A DNA stretch of 8,571 bases from a virus. Taxonomy: Duplodnaviria > Heunggongvirae > Uroviricota > Caudoviricetes. The notes beneath the pieces were generated by a model. That model had not been told where the DNA came from, did not search any database, and saw nothing but the letters and a program-made list of their open reading frames with translations. Every line of letters begins with the position of its first letter. Positions within the stretch are counted from its first letter, which is position 1. Of the stretch, positions 259-8,571 are shown piece by piece. Location of the stretch: the IMG/VR virus record IMGVR_UViG_2571042263_000006; one strand, 5' to 3'. Both the position numbers and the translations under genes were made by a program.

Positions 259-2148
259 TCATAGTGAATCGGTACCGCCTGATTTGACCATACCGCGATA
301 ATCCAGAGCTGCCACACCTGCATCAATACGGACTTTCCAGGCCACGCCGTCAACGATAAAACCTTCCTGCTGTTCAAGGTAAGGTTCGTCATTGCCATCA
401 AGATAAGCCACCTCGATTGTGTCCGTTCCCTGTGCGGAAAGCATGTACCATTGTTTTTCGCTGATATCATCAAGGCGGGGATCGACGATGATATCAAGTA
501 GCTTGTGATACGGGTTAAAGATCCCGCTGTTTTTATCAGCCCCGAAAGGTGCGGTTGAGTTAATCATCTGCAACGCGCGATCTTCCAGTGCTGCCGGAAC
601 TAAAAGGAATTTAGGCGCAATATTCAGCACTTCGCCATTTTTGTCCTTCTGTGTGCGCATCAGGTGACGTGCTGCACTAAGTCCCGGTGTTGTCAGTCCT
701 GCTTCAATCAGGTTGCTGTGTTTTTTGTCAAACAGCGCTATTCCGTCAGAAAGTTTTACGTTGCCTGTAAGCACCAGATTAACCAGATTTCCCACCGTTC
801 TTGATGCTGCACGGCCCATAGCCATTGGCACCGTTGATAACTGATCAAGGTCATCATTGATTATCGCCTGGCGGGTAATGCTGAAAATATTCCCGTAAGT
901 AGCCAGCGCGATGGGTTCACCGCGATCGCTGGTGGTGATGTATTTATATTCTGCCCCTTCCGGCACTTTGTTTAACGTTGAGAAGCCATTCAGACCAACG
1001 CGGCGGGCTTCCCGGAAGTTTGAAAGGGAACCTTTTTTCGTCCACTGGCGGAATGTTTCGCCGCTGTGCTCCCAGCCTGCAAGCACTGATTTTTCAGCGC
1101 CACCAGCAAGGATATCGGTAAAATCGCTGCTGCTGTGGGTGAATGCCGCGTTTACTATCTGCGAGCGTGTGCCGTAGCTGCCCGTGCTTATACCACGATG
1201 GGTTAATGATGCCTGTGCCATATCGAAAAGGCTCATCATGGCGTAAGGATTACCGCGTTCGGCCCGTTCGTGACCAAGACGCGCATTAAGCCCCTGACGC
1301 ATGGCATCGCCGGTTATATTGCCGTTATCCGTGTACGCGTAGTAAAGATTTGCGGGGGTGGTTTTGTTTGTTGGCGTTGATTCTTTACCCATAGCGAGTA
1401 AAAGGCGTTCGCGTGCATTCTCAACGCTACATTCTGAATCCGCAAGACAACTTATAGCCAGGTCGTTATATCTTCCGTTGAAGGTGCCAAACAATTCACG
1501 GATGCCGTTAAGTCGTTCCTGTTCGCCACTGCCAGTTTTCTGGCTGATCATGCTTTTAATTTTTTCCGGCATATTTGAAAAATCTCCGATTCGTTTTGAT
1601 TCAATTCGGGCCATTGCTGTAATCGCGGGTATAACCTCATCTGCGAAACCGTTAGCCTTACACTCATTGCCATCCATCCAGGTTTCCGCCTCCATCATGG
1701 AGGTGATTTCCTGTTTGCTCCTGCCCGTTCTTCCGGCATAGGTTTCTGCCATCGTGTCGCCCAGCTTGTCCATCAGATCAGCAAAGCGGCGAACGTCGCC
1801 CGACACTCCGGCAGTAACACCACGGGGGGCATGTATCATCATCATCGCGTTTTCAGGCATAACGATGTGATCTCCACACATGGCAATAAACGACGCCATA
1901 GAAGCCGCCATGCCTTCAATGTGTACGATTTTTTTTGCCGGATGATTTTTCAGAGCGTTATAGATAGCCAGCCCTTCAAAGATGTCGCCACCAGGTGAAT
2001 GGATGCGAAGATGGATTTCAGACGCATTACCACACGCGTTGATCTCGTCAGTAAGTGCCGATGCCTTTACACCGTACCCGCCGATCTCGTCATAAATGCG
2101 CACATGTACAACATCTGCCATAGCCTTAATGGAAAACCATGTTTTCAT
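259..2148 (-). CDS. Fused prohead (ClpP/S14-like) serine protease and major capsid protein, 629 aa
   Basis: N-terminal ~190 aa carries ClpP-type motifs: GMAASMAS (candidate nucleophile Ser83, codon ~1900-1902) and MMIHAP (candidate His106). The C-terminal ~330 aa is consistent with a phage major capsid protein, with a linker or scaffold-like segment between. ATG at 2148 has AGGAG 7 nt upstream and overlaps the upstream stop (ATGA). Family assignment from motif recall only. Confidence 0.85.
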   Translation of the reverse strand: MKTWFSIKAMADVVHVRIYDEIGGYGVKASALTDEINACGNASEIHLRIHSPGGDIFEGLAIYNALKNHPAKKIVHIEGMAASMASFIAMCGDHIVMPENAMMMIHAPRGVTAGVSGDVRRFADLMDKLGDTMAETYAGRTGRSKQEITSMMEAETWMDGNECKANGFADEVIPAITAMARIESKRIGDFSNMPEKIKSMISQKTGSGEQERLNGIRELFGTFNGRYNDLAISCLADSECSVENARERLLLAMGKESTPTNKTTPANLYYAYTDNGNITGDAMRQGLNARLGHERAERGNPYAMMSLFDMAQASLTHRGISTGSYGTRSQIVNAAFTHSSSDFTDILAGGAEKSVLAGWEHSGETFRQWTKKGSLSNFREARRVGLNGFSTLNKVPEGAEYKYITTSDRGEPIALATYGNIFSITRQAIINDDLDQLSTVPMAMGRAASRTVGNLVNLVLTGNVKLSDGIALFDKKHSNLIEAGLTTPGLSAARHLMRTQKDKNGEVLNIAPKFLLVPAALEDRALQMINSTAPFGADKNSGIFNPYHKLLDIIVDPRLDDISEKQWYMLSAQGTDTIEVAYLDGNDEPYLEQQEGFIVDGVAWKVRIDAGVAALDYRGMVKSGGTDSL

Positions 2149-2578: not shown

Positions 2579-2797
2579 TTTTTTTGTAAATGTTTTCGGG
2601 AACGTTCCAGTGATGAACAAAAAACAACCTGATTCGACACTAAAAATTTTTATTCTTCAATATATCAATAACTTATAGTGGTGGTGATGGTGCCATAAAA
2701 ATCAAAAAATGCGCCTTTTTCCGCGCCCCTCCGCCCCGTGGACAGGCCACCCCCACCAGGAGTACCTACAAAAAAGCCGGATTGCTCCGGCTTCTGT
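2579..2797. repeat. Copy B of the ~220-bp diverged direct repeat (partner at 39-258)
   Basis: Same ordered conserved blocks as copy A. Its hairpin stem differs in sequence (GCCGGA/TCCGGC versus GGCGGC/GCCGCC) but is still a perfect 6-bp stem, i.e. compensatory changes. Confidence 0.75.
2770..2791 (-). terminator. Rho-independent terminator downstream of the replication module
   Basis: Plus strand AAAAAA-GCCGGA-ttgc-TCCGGC; on the minus strand a 6-bp stem with 4-nt loop followed by TTTTTT, about 75 nt after the stop of the 2867-3043 ORF. Confidence 0.75.
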
Positions 2798-2866
2798 CAC
2801 TCGTTGCTTAAAACGGTATGTTATCCCCGTACGGATCATCGTTACCCGCCTGTTGTTTTGCCCTGT

Positions 2867-3043
2867 TCAGTGCGTCAGTAGCCTGGCCCTGCTGGCCTTT
2901 TTTACCACCTGGTCGGGATGTTCCTTCGCGTATCCTTCCCCCGCGTGGCGGTCTATCGTTCTGATTGCCACCTTTAAGGCGTGCTCTGTCATGTCTAACG
3001 CTTTATATTTTGGCTCTGTTCTGTCTCTGTGTTTTTGAGTCAT
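2867..3043 (-). CDS. Small basic hypothetical protein (58 aa) immediately after the iteron array
   Basis: The ORF-track version (2867-3175) starts at a GTG inside the iterons with no RBS. ATG at 3043 is preceded by GAGGTGG, which is itself the reverse complement of the first iteron. Lys/Arg-rich. Function unknown. Confidence 0.4.
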   Translation of the reverse strand: MTQKHRDRTEPKYKALDMTEHALKVAIRTIDRHAGEGYAKEHPDQVVKKASRARLLTH

Positions 3044-3045
3044 TT

Positions 3046-3247
3046 GCCCACCTCTACCCACTTTTTTCGCCCACTTTTTACGTTTTCCCACTTCGTCCAA
3101 CGTGGGAAATTTGGGATTTATATCATCTTGTTTCATAAGTATTTTTTTAGTGCCCACTTTTTGGGATATATACACGTGGGAAAGTGGGTAATTTTGTTAA
3201 AATTACGTTAAATTGCCCACCTTTCCCACTTTTAATGCCCACTTTTT
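3046..3247. repeat. Iteron array, candidate origin of replication
   Basis: Eight direct copies of (G/T)CCCAC(C/T)TT with core CCCAC at 3047, 3057, 3070, 3087, 3153, 3216, 3225, 3238, plus three inverted copies (GTGGG at 3102, 3176, 3184). Two iteron clusters flank an AT-rich spacer (3110-3150) and sit immediately 3' of the replication gene, overlapping its stop codon. Confidence 0.65.
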
Positions 3248-4655
3248 ACAGTGGTCCTACATCATCACCGTCAATGTAGATCACGTCGTCTTTTTCCAGT
3301 TTGGCTAACCATCGTTTAAGGTGTTTTGTGTCATACCCCAGCTTTTTCATATCGTCACGTAACAGCGGGATCGTGCACTTGTCGCCGTGCTGTGTGCGTG
3401 AACGTATGCACCCCCATAGCGCGGTATGGTTTTCCGTCTTGTTCCCTGCCTCCTCGATGCGCTCCAGTTCAACGGGAGGGCGCGGCTTATCCACCACCAC
3501 CAGCGACGTGATTAACTCCCCGTCAGCGTCGGTAAAAAGCTCCACCACCCGCAAATCATAGGCAGCCTCTTTGAGTTCCTCCGCGTCCTTCATTTTGGTG
3601 CATGAGATAACCAGCGCTTCGCTTCCTGCGTCCTCCCTGCGTATCCGGTATTCAGCATCCAGCGAAGCACGAAATGCACTGGAACCGCGCGCGCCTTTCG
3701 TCTCATCCTTGCCGGAATGGTGAACCACCAGCACCGTGGCCCCTGTGCGTCGTTTCAGTTCGTCACAACCACGGATAAACGCCCCCATATCACGGGAATC
3801 ATTTTCATCATTCCCACCAAAGCAACGCGCCAGCGTATCCAGAATAATCATGCGTACAGGTTTACCCGTTTCCCGCTCCACCTGACGGGCAGCGATAACC
3901 ATTTCATCAATATCAAGCGGGGCAGCCGGAAAGATGGGACGGTTTACCAGATACAGATTTTTCACCTGCTCACCGTGCACAACCTCCCAGGCTTTTACAC
4001 GACGCGGAACGCCGATACCGCCTTCACCAACCACATAGAGAACAGCGCCATGCGCCACCCTGCGGCCTCCCCACTGGCGGCCCGTGGAAACGTGACACGC
4101 CCACGATCCGGCAAGGAATGATTTATAGGAACCGCTCGCCCCGTATATGCTGCAAAGCGACGATGCCGGAATAATCCCCTTTACCACGTAATCAAGCTGT
4201 GTGTCGTATCCGGTAGATCCAACGCTCATCGGTAGCGTGGTTTTTCGCTGGGGGATTTTTTTCATGACCAGGCTTTCCCCGCGTTCCCATGCCTCCCTAA
4301 GCCGTGGAAGCTGGTCGCTCCATTCCTCCAGCAATTCGAAATTTTCAGAAAGTAGCCGCGCCTCCTGGACTCCGGCGATCGCCAGTTTCGTGGCGATGGT
4401 TAACAGCTGCGGCTCTTCAATATTTCCGGCGCGTATCACCGTCGCCCTGTATCGCCCATCATCAACAATCTGGAGGTTATCCAGTTCGCTTAACTGATAA
4501 CGCCCCAGATAAACGGGAGGGACTGGATCTCCTGCTTTTTTTGCCTGTGCAATGATGTAATGCTCTGCGAATGAATGAGCATCAATACCCGCAAAAATAA
4601 TCGCATCGGTGTATTTATCTTTCGGTAATCGTTTTACGTTCGGTGCCAGTTTCAT
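3246..4655 (-). CDS. Replication initiator: RecA-fold P-loop ATPase / helicase (RepA/DnaB-like, AAA_25-type) with N-terminal domain of unknown function and probable C-terminal origin-binding domain, 469 aa
   Basis: Walker A GASGSYKS (res 172-179), Walker B RMIILD (res 268-273), VVHHSGKD (res 310-317). AGGAG 6 nt upstream of ATG at 4655. Start overlaps the upstream stop (ATGA). Iterons lie directly downstream. Confidence 0.85.
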   Translation of the reverse strand: MKLAPNVKRLPKDKYTDAIIFAGIDAHSFAEHYIIAQAKKAGDPVPPVYLGRYQLSELDNLQIVDDGRYRATVIRAGNIEEPQLLTIATKLAIAGVQEARLLSENFELLEEWSDQLPRLREAWERGESLVMKKIPQRKTTLPMSVGSTGYDTQLDYVVKGIIPASSLCSIYGASGSYKSFLAGSWACHVSTGRQWGGRRVAHGAVLYVVGEGGIGVPRRVKAWEVVHGEQVKNLYLVNRPIFPAAPLDIDEMVIAARQVERETGKPVRMIILDTLARCFGGNDENDSRDMGAFIRGCDELKRRTGATVLVVHHSGKDETKGARGSSAFRASLDAEYRIRREDAGSEALVISCTKMKDAEELKEAAYDLRVVELFTDADGELITSLVVVDKPRPPVELERIEEAGNKTENHTALWGCIRSRTQHGDKCTIPLLRDDMKKLGYDTKHLKRWLAKLEKDDVIYIDGDDVGPL

Positions 4656-4951
4656 TTTTTACTCCTGAATCCGTTAATCATGGTTTTCAGCTTCTGGATG
4701 TTTGCCCGTGCCCTGGCGTTGCTGGTGGGCACGTTATGCGGCGCGGTCTGTACCAGAGAAAAATCACGCCGGAACTGATAAACAGGCATCACGCAATCAT
4801 ATTCGTAACCTTCACGGCGGTAGGTTACGCGCCGTTCTTCCACGCCCTTAATCATTACCGTGCCGCCGTACTGGTCGCGGTAAATATCACCGCGCGTAAA
4901 TTTAGGGTGAGTGTTGCCACTGGCAGTTAAGCCAGAATATTTAAGTTTCAT
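4652..4951 (-). CDS. Hypothetical protein, 99 aa (possibly DUF4222-like, with YRD and GYE motifs)
   Basis: GGAGA 9 nt upstream of ATG at 4951; stop overlaps the rep start. Contains IYRDQYG and REGYEYD; the DUF4222 link is from memory and unverified. Confidence 0.65.
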   Translation of the reverse strand: MKLKYSGLTASGNTHPKFTRGDIYRDQYGGTVMIKGVEERRVTYRREGYEYDCVMPVYQFRRDFSLVQTAPHNVPTSNARARANIQKLKTMINGFRSKK

Positions 4952-4956
4952 TATTT

Positions 4957-5190
4957 TTATTCTCCGGTGTGCTGTTCGTTATATCTGTCGTGCAATGTCT
5001 CTATTTCCTGCAACTCATTTATTACAGGCTCAAGAAGCGTTATTAATGATGTAATAATCCGCGCCTTCTTTACATCACACTCATTATCGCCAAATGTTTC
5101 CAGCCACATTTGCAATATTTCGTACATACCTTCAGCGTAAGCAAGGGCACTAAATGCGCGGTCTATTGTTTCTTGGTAAATATCACGCAT
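4957..5190 (-). CDS. Small acidic hypothetical protein, 77 aa
   Basis: ATG at 5190 with GGGGA 5 nt upstream; starts 1 nt after the stop of the upstream ORF. Predicted helical and acidic. Confidence 0.6.
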   Translation of the reverse strand: MRDIYQETIDRAFSALAYAEGMYEILQMWLETFGDNECDVKKARIITSLITLLEPVINELQEIETLHDRYNEQHTGE

Positions 5191-5191
5191 A

Positions 5192-5413
5192 TTAATCCCC
5201 GTCCGTCGTTTTTCTTAAAATAACTTCTGTCACGAAATCAGCATAATCGGCAGCAATACTCAGTACGTCTATTCCAGTTGATTTATATTCTTTCGTGCCA
5301 ATTAAGAAAAAAGATGCTCTAATCAGTTCGGATATTGCAGAAAGCGCATCACTCGCATCATCAGATACGCCGGAAAATTCTTGTTTCAGGGAATTAAAAC
5401 GATCATCACGCAT
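5192..5413 (-). CDS. Small acidic hypothetical protein, 73 aa, starting 2 nt after a G9 tract
   Basis: ATG at 5413; the only upstream purine-rich element is the G9 homopolymer. Its frame differs from the upstream ORF and the two overlap by 28 nt. Confidence 0.5.
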   Translation of the reverse strand: MRDDRFNSLKQEFSGVSDDASDALSAISELIRASFFLIGTKEYKSTGIDVLSIAADYADFVTEVILRKTTDGD

Positions 5414-5628
5414 AACCCCCCCCCATTTTCACAATCAGCAATAAGAATATTTTTAGCGTCATTCAGCGACCGTGTGGCGGTGTATCGGATACATTCCAGG
5501 GCGAACTGTGTCCGGTCTTTCTGTTCTTCTCCCTGCGCAAGCTCTGCCGTGCATTCAATATCAATAAGCGCGTGCATCAGCGTAGTGAGCGCGGCGGCGG
5601 CTGCGTCCGGTGTGGTTTTATTGTGCAT
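5386..5628 (-). CDS. Small hypothetical protein, 80 aa, possibly the 5' part of a frameshift-split gene
   Basis: ATG at 5628 with GGGGGA 5 nt upstream (the ORF-track start at 5670 is not an ATG). Reads through the G9 tract and stops 28 nt into the next ORF. Confidence 0.5.
   Translation of the reverse strand: MHNKTTPDAAAAALTTLMHALIDIECTAELAQGEEQKDRTQFALECIRYTATRSLNDAKNILIADCENGGGLCVMIVLIP
5416..5424 (-). repeat. Homopolymeric tract, nine G on the coding (minus) strand, C9 on plus
   Basis: Plus strand 5416-5424 is CCCCCCCCC. It encodes Gly-Gly-Gly near the C-terminus of ORF 5386-5628 and lies 2 nt upstream of the ATG of ORF 5192-5413. Confidence 0.9.
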
Positions 5629-5818
5629 AGGTTTCCCCCTGGCGAATACGGGCGGCAAATACAGCAACACAACCGGACGGGCAACGGCTACGCGCTTCGC
5701 GTTCCGTCCAGGCGGTTACGTGGATGATTTGACGGTCTGACGCGCCGACGGCAATAAAGCGCCACACAAAGGCCGTTTGTGTGTGTGCTAGTCGTGGAGT
5801 ATGATTTACGGCAACCAT
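5618..5818 (-). CDS. Small hypothetical protein, 66 aa, possible first gene of the early operon
   Basis: ATG at 5818 preceded by GAGGAG 5 nt upstream. GC-rich, Ala/Arg-rich; no recognisable motif. Could instead be a structured 5' leader. Confidence 0.35.
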   Translation of the reverse strand: MVAVNHTPRLAHTQTAFVWRFIAVGASDRQIIHVTAWTEREARSRCPSGCVAVFAARIRQGETYAQ

Positions 5819-6016
5819 AACGGCTCCTCGTTTACGTTGTTGGTTAGAAGCCCCGTTACTGCTCCAACAGTGCGGGGCTTCGTCGTTTCAATTGCTGAAT
5901 TGCATGTATCAGCTCTTGTGGTATTCAGATTACATTTAAGTGAATACCATTTCAAGCTTTTTTGGGTATTCACTTTTGTGTTACACTGCATCCCGCTATT
6001 AATCGGAGGTGCAAAC
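5819..6016. promoter_or_regulatory. Divergent control region between the early operon (minus) and the Arc-like regulator gene (plus), with candidate operators
   Basis: 9-bp inverted repeat GAAGCCCCG (5847-5855) / CGGGGCTTC (5872-5880). GGTATTCA at 5920-5927 and 5965-5972 with the inverted copy TGAATACC at 5941-5948. No confident -35/-10 assignment could be made. Confidence 0.5.
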
Positions 6017-6322
6017 ATGTCCACGAGTTCTGTTAACAATAAGTCACAGCAACTGAATGCCAGATTTCCACATGAAGTAGTGAGTGGCATTGAGGCATCC
6101 CTACAGCCAGGGGAAACTAAAGCGAATTTTATAGTTACAGCAGTACGCGGTGAGATCGCCCGCCGCCAAGCAGAAGGAAGAGGAGAAAACCCCCTGGTTT
6201 CTTCGCTCGATGCACTGGCGCAGGTGGAAAAAATCGGAGTCAAAGCAGCCGAGGAGATCGGGCAACTCGTCACCATCGCGCGTGAAGAACTCCAGCGTCG
6301 CAAGACCCAAGAATCAGAATAA
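6017..6322 (+). CDS. Arc/Mnt-like ribbon-helix-helix transcriptional regulator, 101 aa
   Basis: ATG at 6017 with GGAGG 7 nt upstream (ORF-track start 5801 rejected). N-terminal LNARFPHEVVSGIEA matches the Arc-type beta-strand and first helix pattern (Arc: FNLRWPREVLDLV). Tandem stop TAATAA. Confidence 0.7.
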   Translation: MSTSSVNNKSQQLNARFPHEVVSGIEASLQPGETKANFIVTAVRGEIARRQAEGRGENPLVSSLDALAQVEKIGVKAAEEIGQLVTIAREELQRRKTQESE

Positions 6323-6379
6323 TAACTATCAGCGCCGTGGCGTGAGGAACTCCGGCGCATTGCTTTACAGGTCGGCACT

Positions 6380-6589
6380 ATGAGCAAAAAATACCTATCC
6401 ACTGAAGAGATTTTCGCAGAACAACGAAGATTGCTTTTACAGAGCATTGTTGCACGCCAGAAAGAAAAGGCACACGCTAAACAAATGCCACCAAATACAG
6501 AACCAGCGCCTACAAAATTTGCGCTTGATGAGTTTCTCAATAAACAGCCCCGGGTAATGAAAGCTAACAGGAACCGCCCACCAGGCTGA
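6380..6589 (+). CDS. Hypothetical protein, 69 aa, downstream of the Arc-like gene
   Basis: ATG 57 nt after the Arc-like stop with only a weak AGGT RBS. Non-repetitive composition; no recognisable motif. Confidence 0.4.
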   Translation: MSKKYLSTEEIFAEQRRLLLQSIVARQKEKAHAKQMPPNTEPAPTKFALDEFLNKQPRVMKANRNRPPG

Positions 6590-6653
6590 TCACATTGCCC
6601 ACCAGCCAGCAAATCGCTATGATGGCTGGGCTTATGTTTAGTGTATTCCCACT

Positions 6654-6684
6654 GGCGGCCTCTGATCCGGGTCGCCTTTGTTTT
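6654..6684 (+). terminator. Candidate rho-independent terminator for the plus-strand regulator operon
   Basis: GGCGGCC (6654-6660), 9-nt loop, GGTCGCC (6670-6676, one G-U pair), then TTTGTTTT. It sits between the convergent plus-strand operon and alpA. Confidence 0.4.
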
Positions 6685-6703
6685 ATGTGTCATATGCCCC
6701 CCT

Positions 6704-6913
6704 TTACGCTGCCTTGCCTGAATTAATGCGATCCCGGCTTTTAACCCATTCCATAACCTCGGACAGCAGCCAACCTACAGAACGACCGCCCAGATTACGG
6801 CGTGACGGGAAATTCCCTTTTTTCTCCAGTTCATAGCGTGTAGTGCGACACACTCCAGTTAACTTACGACATTCATCCTCACGGATTACGCGATCTTCAT
6901 TTATTTCACGCAT
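6704..6913 (-). CDS. alpA: AlpA-family phage transcriptional regulator / excisionase-like DNA-binding protein, 69 aa
   Basis: Translation contains the AlpA-family core LTGVCRTTRYELEKKGNFPSRRNLGGRSVGWLLSEVMEWV. Positioned downstream of int on the same strand, as in CP4-57 and P4-like islands. Confidence 0.85.
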   Translation of the reverse strand: MREINEDRVIREDECRKLTGVCRTTRYELEKKGNFPSRRNLGGRSVGWLLSEVMEWVKSRDRINSGKAA

Positions 6914-7332: not shown

Positions 7333-8571
7333 TCAAGGATTTTGGGTGTAAATTCGCGGGGTCATAACAACGATTTTTTCATCATTGTTCTGGAGAAGCT
7401 CGAGACGGTCTACCCATAGATTAAGAGCATCACGTTTTGCATCAAGATAACGGGAGTGGTTATAGACTCGTTGCATCCCCGGCATCTGGTGGGCGGTAAG
7501 CTGCTCGACAATATGCGGATCCACGCCTAAATCGTTCAGCATGGTTGTAAATGTGTGCCGGATGTCATGCAACGACCAGGGGGCTTGATTAATGCGTCTG
7601 TGTGCCGTTCTTCCGTACTCTGCTACGGATGATTGCCCTTTCAGTTCTCCAAGCAATAAGCCCGTGTGCCTGTTCTTCTCCACCAGCTTCATGACAAACG
7701 GCAAGATCGCTTCCGGTATTGGCCTGAATATTGCTACCTTCGTTTTGCTGTGTTCTTTCGGCACAGTCCAGAGCATTTCTTTAAAATCCCATTCCTGAAC
7801 CTCGGAGCGTCTTAGCTCAGTGGTACGGCATCCAAAGACAATCAGAAGGCGAATTAAGGCGCTGTAGTACGGCGGGAAAATTTTTTCATCCAGTGCGCGG
7901 AGTAGCTCGCCAAGCTCCTTGTTTGTTAGCACTCGCTCGCTTATTTCTGCTTTTTTTCCCACATCACCTACGACCATATCATCAAGAACGTTACTGACGG
8001 CGTAGCGACGTTTACGGCAGTACTTAAGCGCCTGCTTGCATACCTGCAACAAAAAGCCGGCTGATACCGGATTACGCTTAGCAAGCTGGTCAAAACAGGC
8101 CAGCCAGTGGCGTAGCTCGCATTTATCCAGCGGCATAGCACCAATCTGGCTGATTATGTGCTTATTGATCCGGCTTTTCAGTGATTCGTGGTCAGTGCGC
8201 TTTTCCTTCGCGTATGACTCAAGCCAGTAAGTGATCGCGTCCTTAACCGTTACAGGTGCTAACGCTTCCTGCACTGTGTGATTAAGCTCATGGCGTGGAT
8301 TTTTCCCCTCTGCCAGCCAGGCGCGACACTGTGCCGCTTTTTCTCTGGCTGCTTTCAGGCTCAGATCGGGATAGTTGCCCAGTCTCAGGCGTTCCGGTGA
8401 TACCTGCCTGCCAGTTCCGGCCCTGTAAGTGAAATACCAGGTTAACAGGCCATTGGTTGAATGCCTTACGCTAAGGTTGCCACCATCATTAAAAAAGGTG
8501 TTTTTTGTGGTTGGTGATCCGCTTAATTTTCGTAAAAGAGTGTCGCTAAGTCTATGAATTGCCCTGCTCAT
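7333..8571 (-). CDS. int: P4-type tyrosine integrase (site-specific recombinase), 412 aa
   Basis: N-terminal arm-binding-type region (LSDTLLRKL...FNDGGNLSVRHSTNGLLTWYFTYR) and C-terminal catalytic motifs HDIRHTF (H-x-x-R) and VYNHSRY (Tyr nucleophile region). The first ATG is the last three bases of the window, so the true start could lie just outside. Confidence 0.9.
   Translation of the reverse strand: MSRAIHRLSDTLLRKLSGSPTTKNTFFNDGGNLSVRHSTNGLLTWYFTYRAGTGRQVSPERLRLGNYPDLSLKAAREKAAQCRAWLAEGKNPRHELNHTVQEALAPVTVKDAITYWLESYAKEKRTDHESLKSRINKHIISQIGAMPLDKCELRHWLACFDQLAKRNPVSAGFLLQVCKQALKYCRKRRYAVSNVLDDMVVGDVGKKAEISERVLTNKELGELLRALDEKIFPPYYSALIRLLIVFGCRTTELRRSEVQEWDFKEMLWTVPKEHSKTKVAIFRPIPEAILPFVMKLVEKNRHTGLLLGELKGQSSVAEYGRTAHRRINQAPWSLHDIRHTFTTMLNDLGVDPHIVEQLTAHQMPGMQRVYNHSRYLDAKRDALNLWVDRLELLQNNDEKIVVMTPRIYTQNP

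Follow-up and report, generated by a model that had tools for sequence, protein, structure and literature searches.

A cluster of five small genes upstream of a replicative helicase gene

The virus record IMGVR_UViG_2571042263_000006 consists of 8571 nucleotides (nt) of DNA, hereafter called the window in its full length, and is 100% identical to a stretch of Escherichia coli 042 and of about 20 other genomes. Between positions 4652 and 5818, five small open reading frames (ORFs), here named O1 through O5, lie on the minus strand directly before a gene for a RepA-family replicative helicase. An earlier, sequence-only reading of this DNA had described them as an uncharacterised operon. These ORFs and two associated features are listed below from upstream to downstream, with lengths in amino acids (aa) and isoelectric points (pI).

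5851-5885, minus strand: stem-loop in the operon leader (covariation, folding)
5618-5818, minus strand: O1, 66 aa, basic (pI 10.6), Icd-family protein and first gene of the operon (NF033153, P1 Icd, PHROGs)
5386-5628, minus strand: O2, 80 aa, acidic, N-terminal half of an O2-O3 gene (phrog_2512, phrog_5146)
5416-5424, minus strand: G9 tract on the coding strand (C9 on the plus strand) at the O2/O3 junction (sequence)
5192-5413, minus strand: O3, 73 aa, acidic (pI 4.37), starting MRD at its own ATG, C-terminal half of an O2-O3 gene (phrog_24341, phrog_2512)
4957-5190, minus strand: O4, 77 aa, acidic (pI 4.40), starting MRD, predicted antiparallel two-helix hairpin (PHROG match, structure prediction)
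4652-4951, minus strand: O5, 99 aa, basic (pI 10.2), RgdR-family (DUF4222) protein (PF13973, phrog_285)

The five ORFs are real genes under purifying selection rather than chance ORFs. Each has a PHROG family match (E-values from 1e-10 to 1e-36), and all are annotated as genes by NCBI PGAP. When compared with the full-length variants of related loci, O1 through O5 yield ratios of nonsynonymous to synonymous substitution rates (dN/dS) of 0.36, 0.25, 0.29, 0.33 and 0.37, with zero internal stops; the value for O2 was computed on the part before the G tract. These results and the coordinates agree with the ORF sizes, individual Shine-Dalgarno sequences and ATGA link to the replication gene given in the sequence-only reading. 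Specifically, a purine-rich Shine-Dalgarno sequence lies 5-9 nt upstream of each start: GAGGAG (O1), GGGGGA (O2), the G9 tract itself (O3), GGGGA (O4), GGAGA (O5) and AGGAG (RepA). The length of O2 is counted from its ATG, and the longest ORF in its frame starts at a GTG and comprises 94 aa.

The same reading described the junctions as 1-nt gaps or overlaps, which is only roughly correct. O1 overlaps O2 by 11 nt, O2 overlaps O3 by 28 nt, a single nucleotide separates O3 from O4, and O5 overlaps the RepA gene through ATGA, but the gap between O4 and O5 is 5 nt. Packed ORFs that run through ATGA into a RepA-type helicase gene have the geometry predicted for a translationally coupled operon. Among homologues (P0179, P0213 and P0268), we also observe the N-terminal part of O3 fused to O4, and O1-O2 fusions that arise through frameshifts near the end of O1. 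Such fusion and truncation products indicate that small indels are frequent across the operon.

The cluster is a widespread, syntenic module of E. coli satellites

Of 5426 complete E. coli genomes, 1404 contain parts of the 4652-5818 region, and 613 contain at least 80% of the cluster. Carriers of the module thus amount to about a quarter of complete E. coli genomes, with enterohaemorrhagic (EHEC), uropathogenic (UPEC) and enteroaggregative (EAEC) strains among them. The matches include the studied satellite CP-933C/EcCIEDL933, and the cluster is therefore no private oddity. The sequence-only reading proposed a comparison of gene neighbourhoods across islands, for which we used two sets of about 80 IMG/VR loci each, one drawn through the O2/O3 junction and the other through O5. 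The order O1>O2>O3>O4>O5>replicase predominates in both. Some loci depart from this order: O1 may be followed by one more small ORF, O2 and O3 are now and then separated by a 127-aa insert, and O4 is occasionally lost. The downstream replicase is interchangeable, and can be a RepA helicase, a member of a primase family, or a DUF927 or DUF5906 protein.

CP-933C (also O-island 51 or Sp7) is the prototype capsid-forming phage-inducible chromosomal island (cf-PICI) EcCIEDL933 (bioRxiv 10.1101/2022.09.08.507074), and RgdR orthologues tie the cluster to two further islands, EcCICFT073 and EcCIED1a (PMC3378721; bioRxiv 10.1101/2022.09.08.507074). All three islands share with the window the order int, alpA, Icd-like gene, small ORFs, DUF4222 (RgdR) gene and replication gene. 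The CP-933C counterparts of O1 (an Icd-like protein) and O5 are 82% and 80% identical to the window proteins, respectively. In contrast, CP-933C carries three unrelated small ORFs (61, 63 and 80 aa) in the slot occupied by O2 through O4 and a DUF927 primase in place of RepA, whereas in the window island a divergent ylcI gene separates alpA from icd and, rather than the full cf-PICI head and packaging set, only a protease-capsid fusion is present. At the same roxA site, a sister island from O157:H7 has a fused O2-O3 gene, O4, O5 and RepA in the order of the window.

The left (early) operon of phage P4 has the gene order kil, cI RNA, eps, orf151, cnr, alpha. The window island resembles this arrangement in that small early genes lie upstream of, and are predicted to be cotranscribed with, the replication gene (a primase-helicase gene in P4), and in that a tyrosine integrase and an AlpA/Vis-type regulator are present. 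However, searches with O1 and O5 (tblastn) yield no match in P4, and the hallmark genes psu, delta and sid are not in the island, nor is an alpha primase-helicase annotated there.

The integrase, AlpA, RepA helicase and protease/capsid fusion bear out the satellite setting that the sequence-only reading had recognized. On the strength of these comparisons, we consider it likely that the five ORFs constitute the conserved early operon of an Escherichia satellite of the PICI type, induced by a helper and AlpA, and located between cspD and clpS. The cluster is a further example of a described satellite early region that is mostly ordinary and has a few small new features, and our findings leave the general understanding of satellites unchanged. 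We find no support for the proposal that this is the most plausible place for an undescribed system, and no pointer to defence or anti-defence: PADLOC gives no hits, the fold match is uninformative, and the genes form a conserved syntenic module rather than cargo.

O1 is a homologue of phage P1 Icd

As judged by its sequence, O1 is a true homologue of phage P1 Icd. Residues 17-60 match the phage_ICD_like family NF033153 (E 6e-18; 64.6 bits versus a cut-off of 25), and further matches are found to phrog_1743, phrog_6196 and phrog_29966. O1 and P1 Icd are 39% identical over 46 aa (E 2e-7) and have in common the residues F.WRF ... A.TE.EARS..P.G ... F.AR. The 11-nt overlap of the O1 stop with the O2 ATG places O1 as an overlapping leading ORF, as is characteristic of the Icd family. 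In P1, the c4-icd-ant operon begins with icd as its first ORF. The gene overlaps ant1, is recorded as 'apparently required for expression of ant', and is subject to repression by C4 antisense RNA. In the P1 immI region (c4 - icd - ant1/2), icd leads and overlaps the next gene as O1 does, so that downstream translation depends on icd. The window differs from immI in that C4 and IsrK RNAs are replaced by another conserved hairpin and a divergent YlcI-type gene, and in that O2 through O5 and a helicase, rather than the Ant antirepressor, follow icd. By homology, O1 is predicted to arrest host division while the island replicates.

An Icd-like protein could also serve a very different purpose, in which the operon is, or contains, an abortive-infection or programmed-cell-death module. 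A phage protein would trigger this module, the Icd-like protein would kill or arrest the cell and thereby protect the host population of the island, and the acidic proteins would act as sensors or antitoxin-like restraints. The precedent is the ECOR61 prophage-borne six-gene locus, which includes an Icd-like protein and a DNA primase. Growth stops when phage orf24 is expressed, and this effect is lost without the Icd-like gene, the likely effector (Silas et al., bioRxiv 10.1101/2023.04.06.535777). The window carries the gene types of the ECOR61 locus, as known from its description, in the same order (Icd-like gene, small ORFs, replicase), and the presence of a basic Icd beside small acidic proteins is at least compatible with toxin/antidote logic. 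However, the reconstituted ECOR61 effect is muted and requires all six genes (bioRxiv 10.1101/2023.04.06.535777), and therefore may simply represent induction of satellite replication. Furthermore, the window encodes only the 66-aa form of Icd, the Icd 'extension' of relatives lies in a frame antisense to ylcI that lacks family support, and PADLOC-DB 2.0 yields no defence-system component among O1 through O5 or RepA at E <= 1. We consider an abortive-infection function quite improbable.

O5 resembles RgdR and adjoins the replication gene

The sequence-only reading had suspected a DUF4222-like fold in the last ORF, and indeed O5 covers the whole 53-position model of DUF4222 (PF13973; E 1.6e-24; 85.7 bits versus a gathering score of 27). 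The protein also matches phrog_285. It is identical at 79 of 99 positions (80%), with 0 gaps, to the protein annotated rgdR in O157:H7 strain 380-94. Likewise, RgdR of EHEC O157:H7 (ECs1581) has 99 aa and 80% identity with O5, carries an RGD motif at residues 20-22 and K35, and is encoded at the same place before the replication gene. O5 reads KFT-R20-G21-D22-IYRD in this region, with the RGD motif and K35 retained. On this basis, O5 is an orthologue-level relative of RgdR and a predicted regulator.

The experimental characterisation of RgdR dates from 2012 (PMC3378721). Both ECs1581 and its orthologue in CFT073 activate LEE1, a promoter of the enterocyte effacement locus (LEE), and type III secretion, and repress motility (PMC3378721; PMC10877973). 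The RGD motif with R20 is required for activation of the type III secretion system (T3SS), and the ED1a variant R20C is inactive for T3SS (PMC3378721). Through rgdR, satellites have already been connected with how type III secretion and motility are controlled.

In E. coli islands, a DUF4222 gene lies directly upstream of each of the four replication-gene types named above, usually with overlapping stop and start codons. This constant position suggests that DUF4222 is tied to the replication module. The temperate phage SfIV has the same arrangement, in which DUF4222 protein gp40 is followed by primosomal gp41 and then by a PerC-family gene. Consequently, one could imagine that the small proteins, and above all O5, are replication accessory factors, such as helpers of origin or helicase loading or a copy-number regulator like P4 Cnr, and that the effects of RgdR on virulence genes are side effects. 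The placement of DUF4222 next to whichever replicase is present, in islands and in SfIV, would fit this explanation, as would the weak, non-specific DNA binding of RgdR (PMC3378721). Regardless, a constant position could also mark a recombination boundary between modules, and truncated 63-aa copies of RgdR exist outside the replication-gene context (PMC3378721). We also considered O5 as a relative of Cnr and dropped this candidate because no homology to P4 Cnr is detectable by tblastn against phage P4. A primary role of these proteins as replication accessory factors is unlikely in our assessment.

O2 and O3 make up a single gene interrupted at a variable G tract

Comparison with relatives indicates that O2 and O3 together represent one gene, divided into two halves by a length-variable G tract, and the count of five separate ORFs in the sequence-only reading should be amended accordingly. 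O2 and O3 are not two independent genes because phrog_2512 (154 positions) spans both, with positions 1-77 matching O2 and positions 78-145 matching O3, and because an O157:H7 relative has a single 154-aa protein. In that relative, strain 2149, the tract is G7 and the fused protein is annotated. O2 additionally matches phrog_5146, and O3 matches phrog_24341 (E 1e-35). The last 9 residues of O2 (LCVMIVLIP) are an out-of-frame tail produced by the G9 tract. All O2 homologues (n=130) and O3 homologues (n=77) are from Escherichia or Shigella only. A helical hairpin is predicted for O2 (predicted local distance difference test score, or pLDDT, of ~65-72), whereas helices in O3 are predicted at low confidence.

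An in silico length series reveals that G7 or G10 fuses O2 and O3, whereas G8, G9 or G11 splits them. All of these lengths occur naturally: among 84 related loci, the tract is G7 in 24, G8 in 34, G9 in 19, G10 in 4 and G11 in 3. Moreover, tract length differs within 6 of the 11 flank haplotypes that have at least 2 members with identical 500-nt flanks. G9 was read directly in strain 042 itself, the sole 042-named genome so read. A tract of at least 7 nt in a coding region, with frame-changing length polymorphism between near-identical sequences, is one hallmark of a contingency locus, the other being measurable, reversible switching within a clone that has a phenotypic consequence. The O2/O3 junction resembles phase-variable homopolymer loci, in that a coding-region G tract of 7-11 varies in length between otherwise identical sequences and sets the reading frame. 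This hypervariable G tract appears to be new.

Unlike in typical phase-variable loci, however, a change in tract length would switch between fused and split rather than between on and off. The G tract doubles as the Shine-Dalgarno sequence of O3, which always retains its own ATG, and both halves can therefore be made at every tract length. Most simply, O2 and O3 are two parts of a protein that functions both as a single chain and as a complex of its halves, in which case slippage would be nearly neutral; a functional switch between the fused and split forms is conceivable. If O2 and O3 do work as a complex in either form, this would explain why changes in tract length are tolerated.

In RefSeq/PGAP, E. 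coli 042 and O26 RM10386 have the G9 allele annotated as a pair of genes labelled 'hypothetical protein', whereas in 2013C-4225 and UTAK-8 the same allele is one 'frameshifted' pseudogene. The RefSeq annotation of one allele is thus inconsistent, with two genes in some records and a frameshifted pseudogene in others. In one relative (L095), a 127-aa ORF at 2759-3142 lies between O3 and an O2-like gene (74 aa) with a different C-terminus, and has no match to the window or CP-933C proteins that were compared. In some relatives, a further gene thus comes between O2 and O3.

O4 and the acidic proteins are restricted in distribution

O4 is confidently predicted to be helical and to form an antiparallel two-helix hairpin. 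The description of O3 and O4 as two acidic, helical proteins beginning MRD in the sequence-only reading is accurate with respect to charge and N-terminus, and for O4 with respect to helicity, but not with comparable confidence for O3. Both proteins start MRD, and we considered whether they are paralogues, a candidate that was dropped at an hhalign probability of 0.3%. Fold searches with O4 return only a generic match and none that is informative. Its relatives comprise 402 proteins of near-identical length, and the named organisms among the 120 listed are all E. coli. An exhaustive profile search of 1.84 billion representative proteins produced 13 hits at E <= 1e-3, mostly fragments. A short metagenomic contig encodes one divergent relative (31% identity), whose gene immediately follows a YlcI - hairpin - Icd-like unit. 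O4 is restricted to Escherichia-type satellites.

No match to O2, O3 or O4 is found in Pfam, NCBIfam or PADLOC, and a sequence search of the PDB returns nothing for O1, O4, O5 or the fused O2-O3. The statement in the sequence-only reading that the operon is uncharacterised, with no assignable motif, is superseded by the Icd-family and RgdR assignments of O1 and O5, but it stands for the functions of O2, O3 and O4.

Small, acidic, helical proteins such as O2-O3 and O4 resemble many phage inhibitors that act by binding other proteins. They could be helper-directed effectors. As such, they might be anti-repressors that derepress a helper prophage, as P4 epsilon/Ash does, or they might bind proteins of the helper or host for the purpose of interference or anti-defence. 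Restriction to Escherichia satellites is expected of partner-specific binders, and between icd and the DUF4222 gene, CP-933C has unrelated small ORFs and some relatives have additional ones. An 'ash family' remnant just upstream of icd in a sister island points in the same direction. However, we find no homology to characterised anti-repressor, interference or anti-defence proteins, and the fold match is generic. Likewise, the genes are conserved and syntenic within the island lineage rather than cargo-like, and their dN/dS values of 0.25-0.33 show no sign of an arms race. That these proteins are dedicated helper-directed effectors is, in our estimation, distinctly unlikely.

A covarying hairpin and a modular control region precede icd

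Conservation extends over the 70 nt upstream of O1, including in loci that have unrelated sequence beyond this point. Within this region, the stem-loop ends 33 nt before the O1 ATG and is followed by the invariant sequence UCUAACCA and then by the Shine-Dalgarno sequence. Its 13 base pairs are paired in 89.7% of cells across 15 variants, with compensatory changes in 4 pairs. The covariation score is 0.164, versus 0.039 in shuffles (0 of 500 shuffles reach 0.164), and the paired cells fall to 32-51% in controls with slid partners. The minimum free energy (MFE) z-score is -4.2. This motif occurs in 79 of 89 related loci as well as in L167, a distant relative, has no Rfam family match, and delimits the conserved module at its 5' end. 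Possible roles are those of a 5' stabiliser, a site of processing or of protein binding, and a palindromic operator in the DNA. The covarying leader hairpin appears to be new. A match to RsaJ in Rfam at 5848-5944 falls below threshold and was read as a plain hairpin.

The region before icd is modular, as is evident from the 89 related loci, in which a YlcI-type gene is found upstream of icd in 61 and C4 or IsrK in 11. In the sister island of E. coli 2013C-4225 (L087), for example, O1 through O5 have about 90% DNA identity to the window, and canonical C4 (77.6 bits) and IsrK (66 bits) RNAs, at 2716-2803 and 2825-2901, immediately precede the Icd-like gene. This arrangement of a C4 antisense RNA and IsrK just 5' of icd gives such sister islands a likeness to P1 immI. 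At this site, RefSeq lists a partial 'ash family protein', and the RNA genes are not annotated. The exchange of C4/IsrK RNAs for a YlcI-type gene upstream of icd in related islands appears to be new.

The divergent YlcI/YnfO-family gene is a candidate regulator of the 198-nt control region that it shares with the operon. Substitutions at the three codon positions over ylcI (290/88/560) fit the ylcI frame and not the antisense ORF. That antisense ORF is part of a 295-aa open frame on the minus strand (5806-6693), which starts 8 nt after the alpA stop with a good Shine-Dalgarno sequence, runs antisense to ylcI and to a second plus-strand gene (hyp69), and extends 13 nt into O1. The corresponding frame of relatives carries the annotation of a 247-aa protein in L002, and in L095 (233 aa) it continues into the Icd domain. 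We considered this ORF as a real gene coupled to O1 and rejected it because it has no family matches and the codon-position pattern over ylcI speaks against coding; the stretch under hyp69 is ambiguous. The 'long Icd-like' protein of relatives may be an antisense artefact.

Proposed function of the early operon

The island cycle of related E. coli PICIs is activated by AlpA, which is itself induced by the helper, and helper induction, replication and transfer via AlpA are known for EcCICFT073 and EcCIEDL933 (PMC6092414; bioRxiv 10.1101/2022.09.08.507074). A marker placed in a different island of strain 042 was not transferred (PMC6092414). By analogy to the two established islands, we hypothesize that the operon would be silent in the integrated state, and that infection or induction of a helper would turn it on through AlpA and the YlcI-side control region. 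The transcript would begin with, or contain, the conserved stem-loop. Ribosomes would then pass from Icd through O2 to O5 into repA, such that synthesis of the replication protein would accompany that of the small proteins and be proportional to it. Icd would stop host division during replication of the island. RgdR (O5) might be a small factor that binds nucleic acid or a regulator and re-tunes transcription, as for host LEE and flagella in tested orthologues, and it probably serves the adjacent replication module. The acidic, helical O2-O3 and O4 proteins may bind helper or host proteins, with O2 and O3 presumably forming a complex whether fused or split.

Several observations weigh against a helper- and AlpA-induced early operon of this kind, as proposed here from sequence. 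A consensus promoter scan of the minus strand between 5819 and 6016 did not find a convincing sigma-70 promoter; the sole candidate there, TTGAAA-17-TAATCT, was picked by eye. Read-through from alpA into the operon is possible, and AlpA control in the window is extrapolated from islands that have a different spacer between alpA and icd. C4, the antisense RNA that is aimed at the icd ribosome-binding site and controls icd in P1, and isrK are absent from the window even at E <= 1. The phenotypes of RgdR concern LEE and motility rather than the life cycle of a satellite (PMC3378721), and the host of O5 is the enteroaggregative strain 042, whereas ECs1581, whose known target is the LEE1 promoter, is from EHEC. 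Available models and matches for O2, O3 and O4 appear to point to no binding partner, and the structure predicted for P0272, in which O2-O3 is naturally but partially fused, is of low confidence (pLDDT 58). Finally, the island may be partly decayed, as its protease-capsid fusion and SSB (single-stranded DNA-binding protein) remnants might indicate, and the operon may have ceased cycling.

A more elaborate scheme would give the new features an active part. The G tract would be a true contingency switch between single-chain and two-chain proteins that differ in their activity on helper or host, and, together with the Icd-like leader, the operon would be an ECOR61-type module for helper sensing and growth arrest or superinfection exclusion, gated by the new 5' stem-loop in place of C4 RNA. 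We regard this combination as very improbable, and favor the early operon of a PICI-type satellite as described above.

The island and its other features

The five genes are part of an int-alpA island of about 9 kb that is integrated between cspD/yljB and clpS (L001 8719-17571). The 042-named E. coli genomes (042, the Ec-042 derivatives T0, T5 and T20, H7, and H9-H13) match the whole window with an identical, near-maximal score of 15823 bits; an exact match scores 15828 bits, and these genomes therefore differ from the window by at most 1. In addition to the operon, the window carries the following genes.

7333-8571, minus strand: tyrosine integrase, int (annotation/family search)
6704-6913, minus strand: AlpA-family regulator (PF05930, E 2.9e-16)
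6380-6589, plus strand: hyp69, 69-aa 'hypothetical protein' after ylcI (RefSeq annotation)
6017-6322, plus strand: YlcI/YnfO-family gene, 101 aa (NF041551, E 1.3e-16; phrog_6522 over full length, E 1.3e-44)
3246-4655, minus strand: RepA-family replicative helicase, 469 aa (PF13481 AAA_25, E 7.7e-44; phrog_2850 over full length), named 'helicase RepA family protein' by PGAP
259-2148, minus strand: ClpP-like prohead protease/major capsid fusion, 629 aa, the sole structural gene of the island (annotation)

The gene order is int, alpA, (ylcI), icd, three hypotheticals, DUF4222, repA and capsid fusion. Co-oriented int and alpA at one end, followed by a replication gene, within about 9 kb match the layout of Gram-negative PICIs, for which about 9-15 kb is expected (Fillol-Salom et al. 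2018). No portal, connector or terminase gene is annotated in the island, so it does not qualify as a cf-PICI; the full set is present in the related locus L002. With only a protease-capsid fusion, the island fits the definition of neither a classical PICI nor a cf-PICI. Regardless, its tail end (RepA > 102-aa ORF > 75-aa ORF > capsid fusion) is found again in about 20 IMG/VR loci, indicating a recurrent island type and not a one-off deletion.

At about 2808-3136 (L001 11808-12136), RefSeq lists two overlapping pseudogene fragments, an SSB without its N-terminus and a hypothetical protein without its C-terminus. At this position, sister islands carry intact SSB and PerC-family genes, so the SSB part of the window island has decayed. 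The hyp69 gene has no match in Pfam, PHROG or NCBIfam, and its substitutions per codon position (26/49/41) are unlike those of a coding frame; the opposite strand fits slightly better, with small counts. Finally, a GC-rich hairpin followed by a U run lies on the plus strand at 2531-2573, in the gap between the capsid-side and replication-side genes. Its match to ctRNA_p42d in Rfam is below threshold (24.3 bits versus 50) and was read as a plain hairpin, which is most likely an intrinsic terminator.

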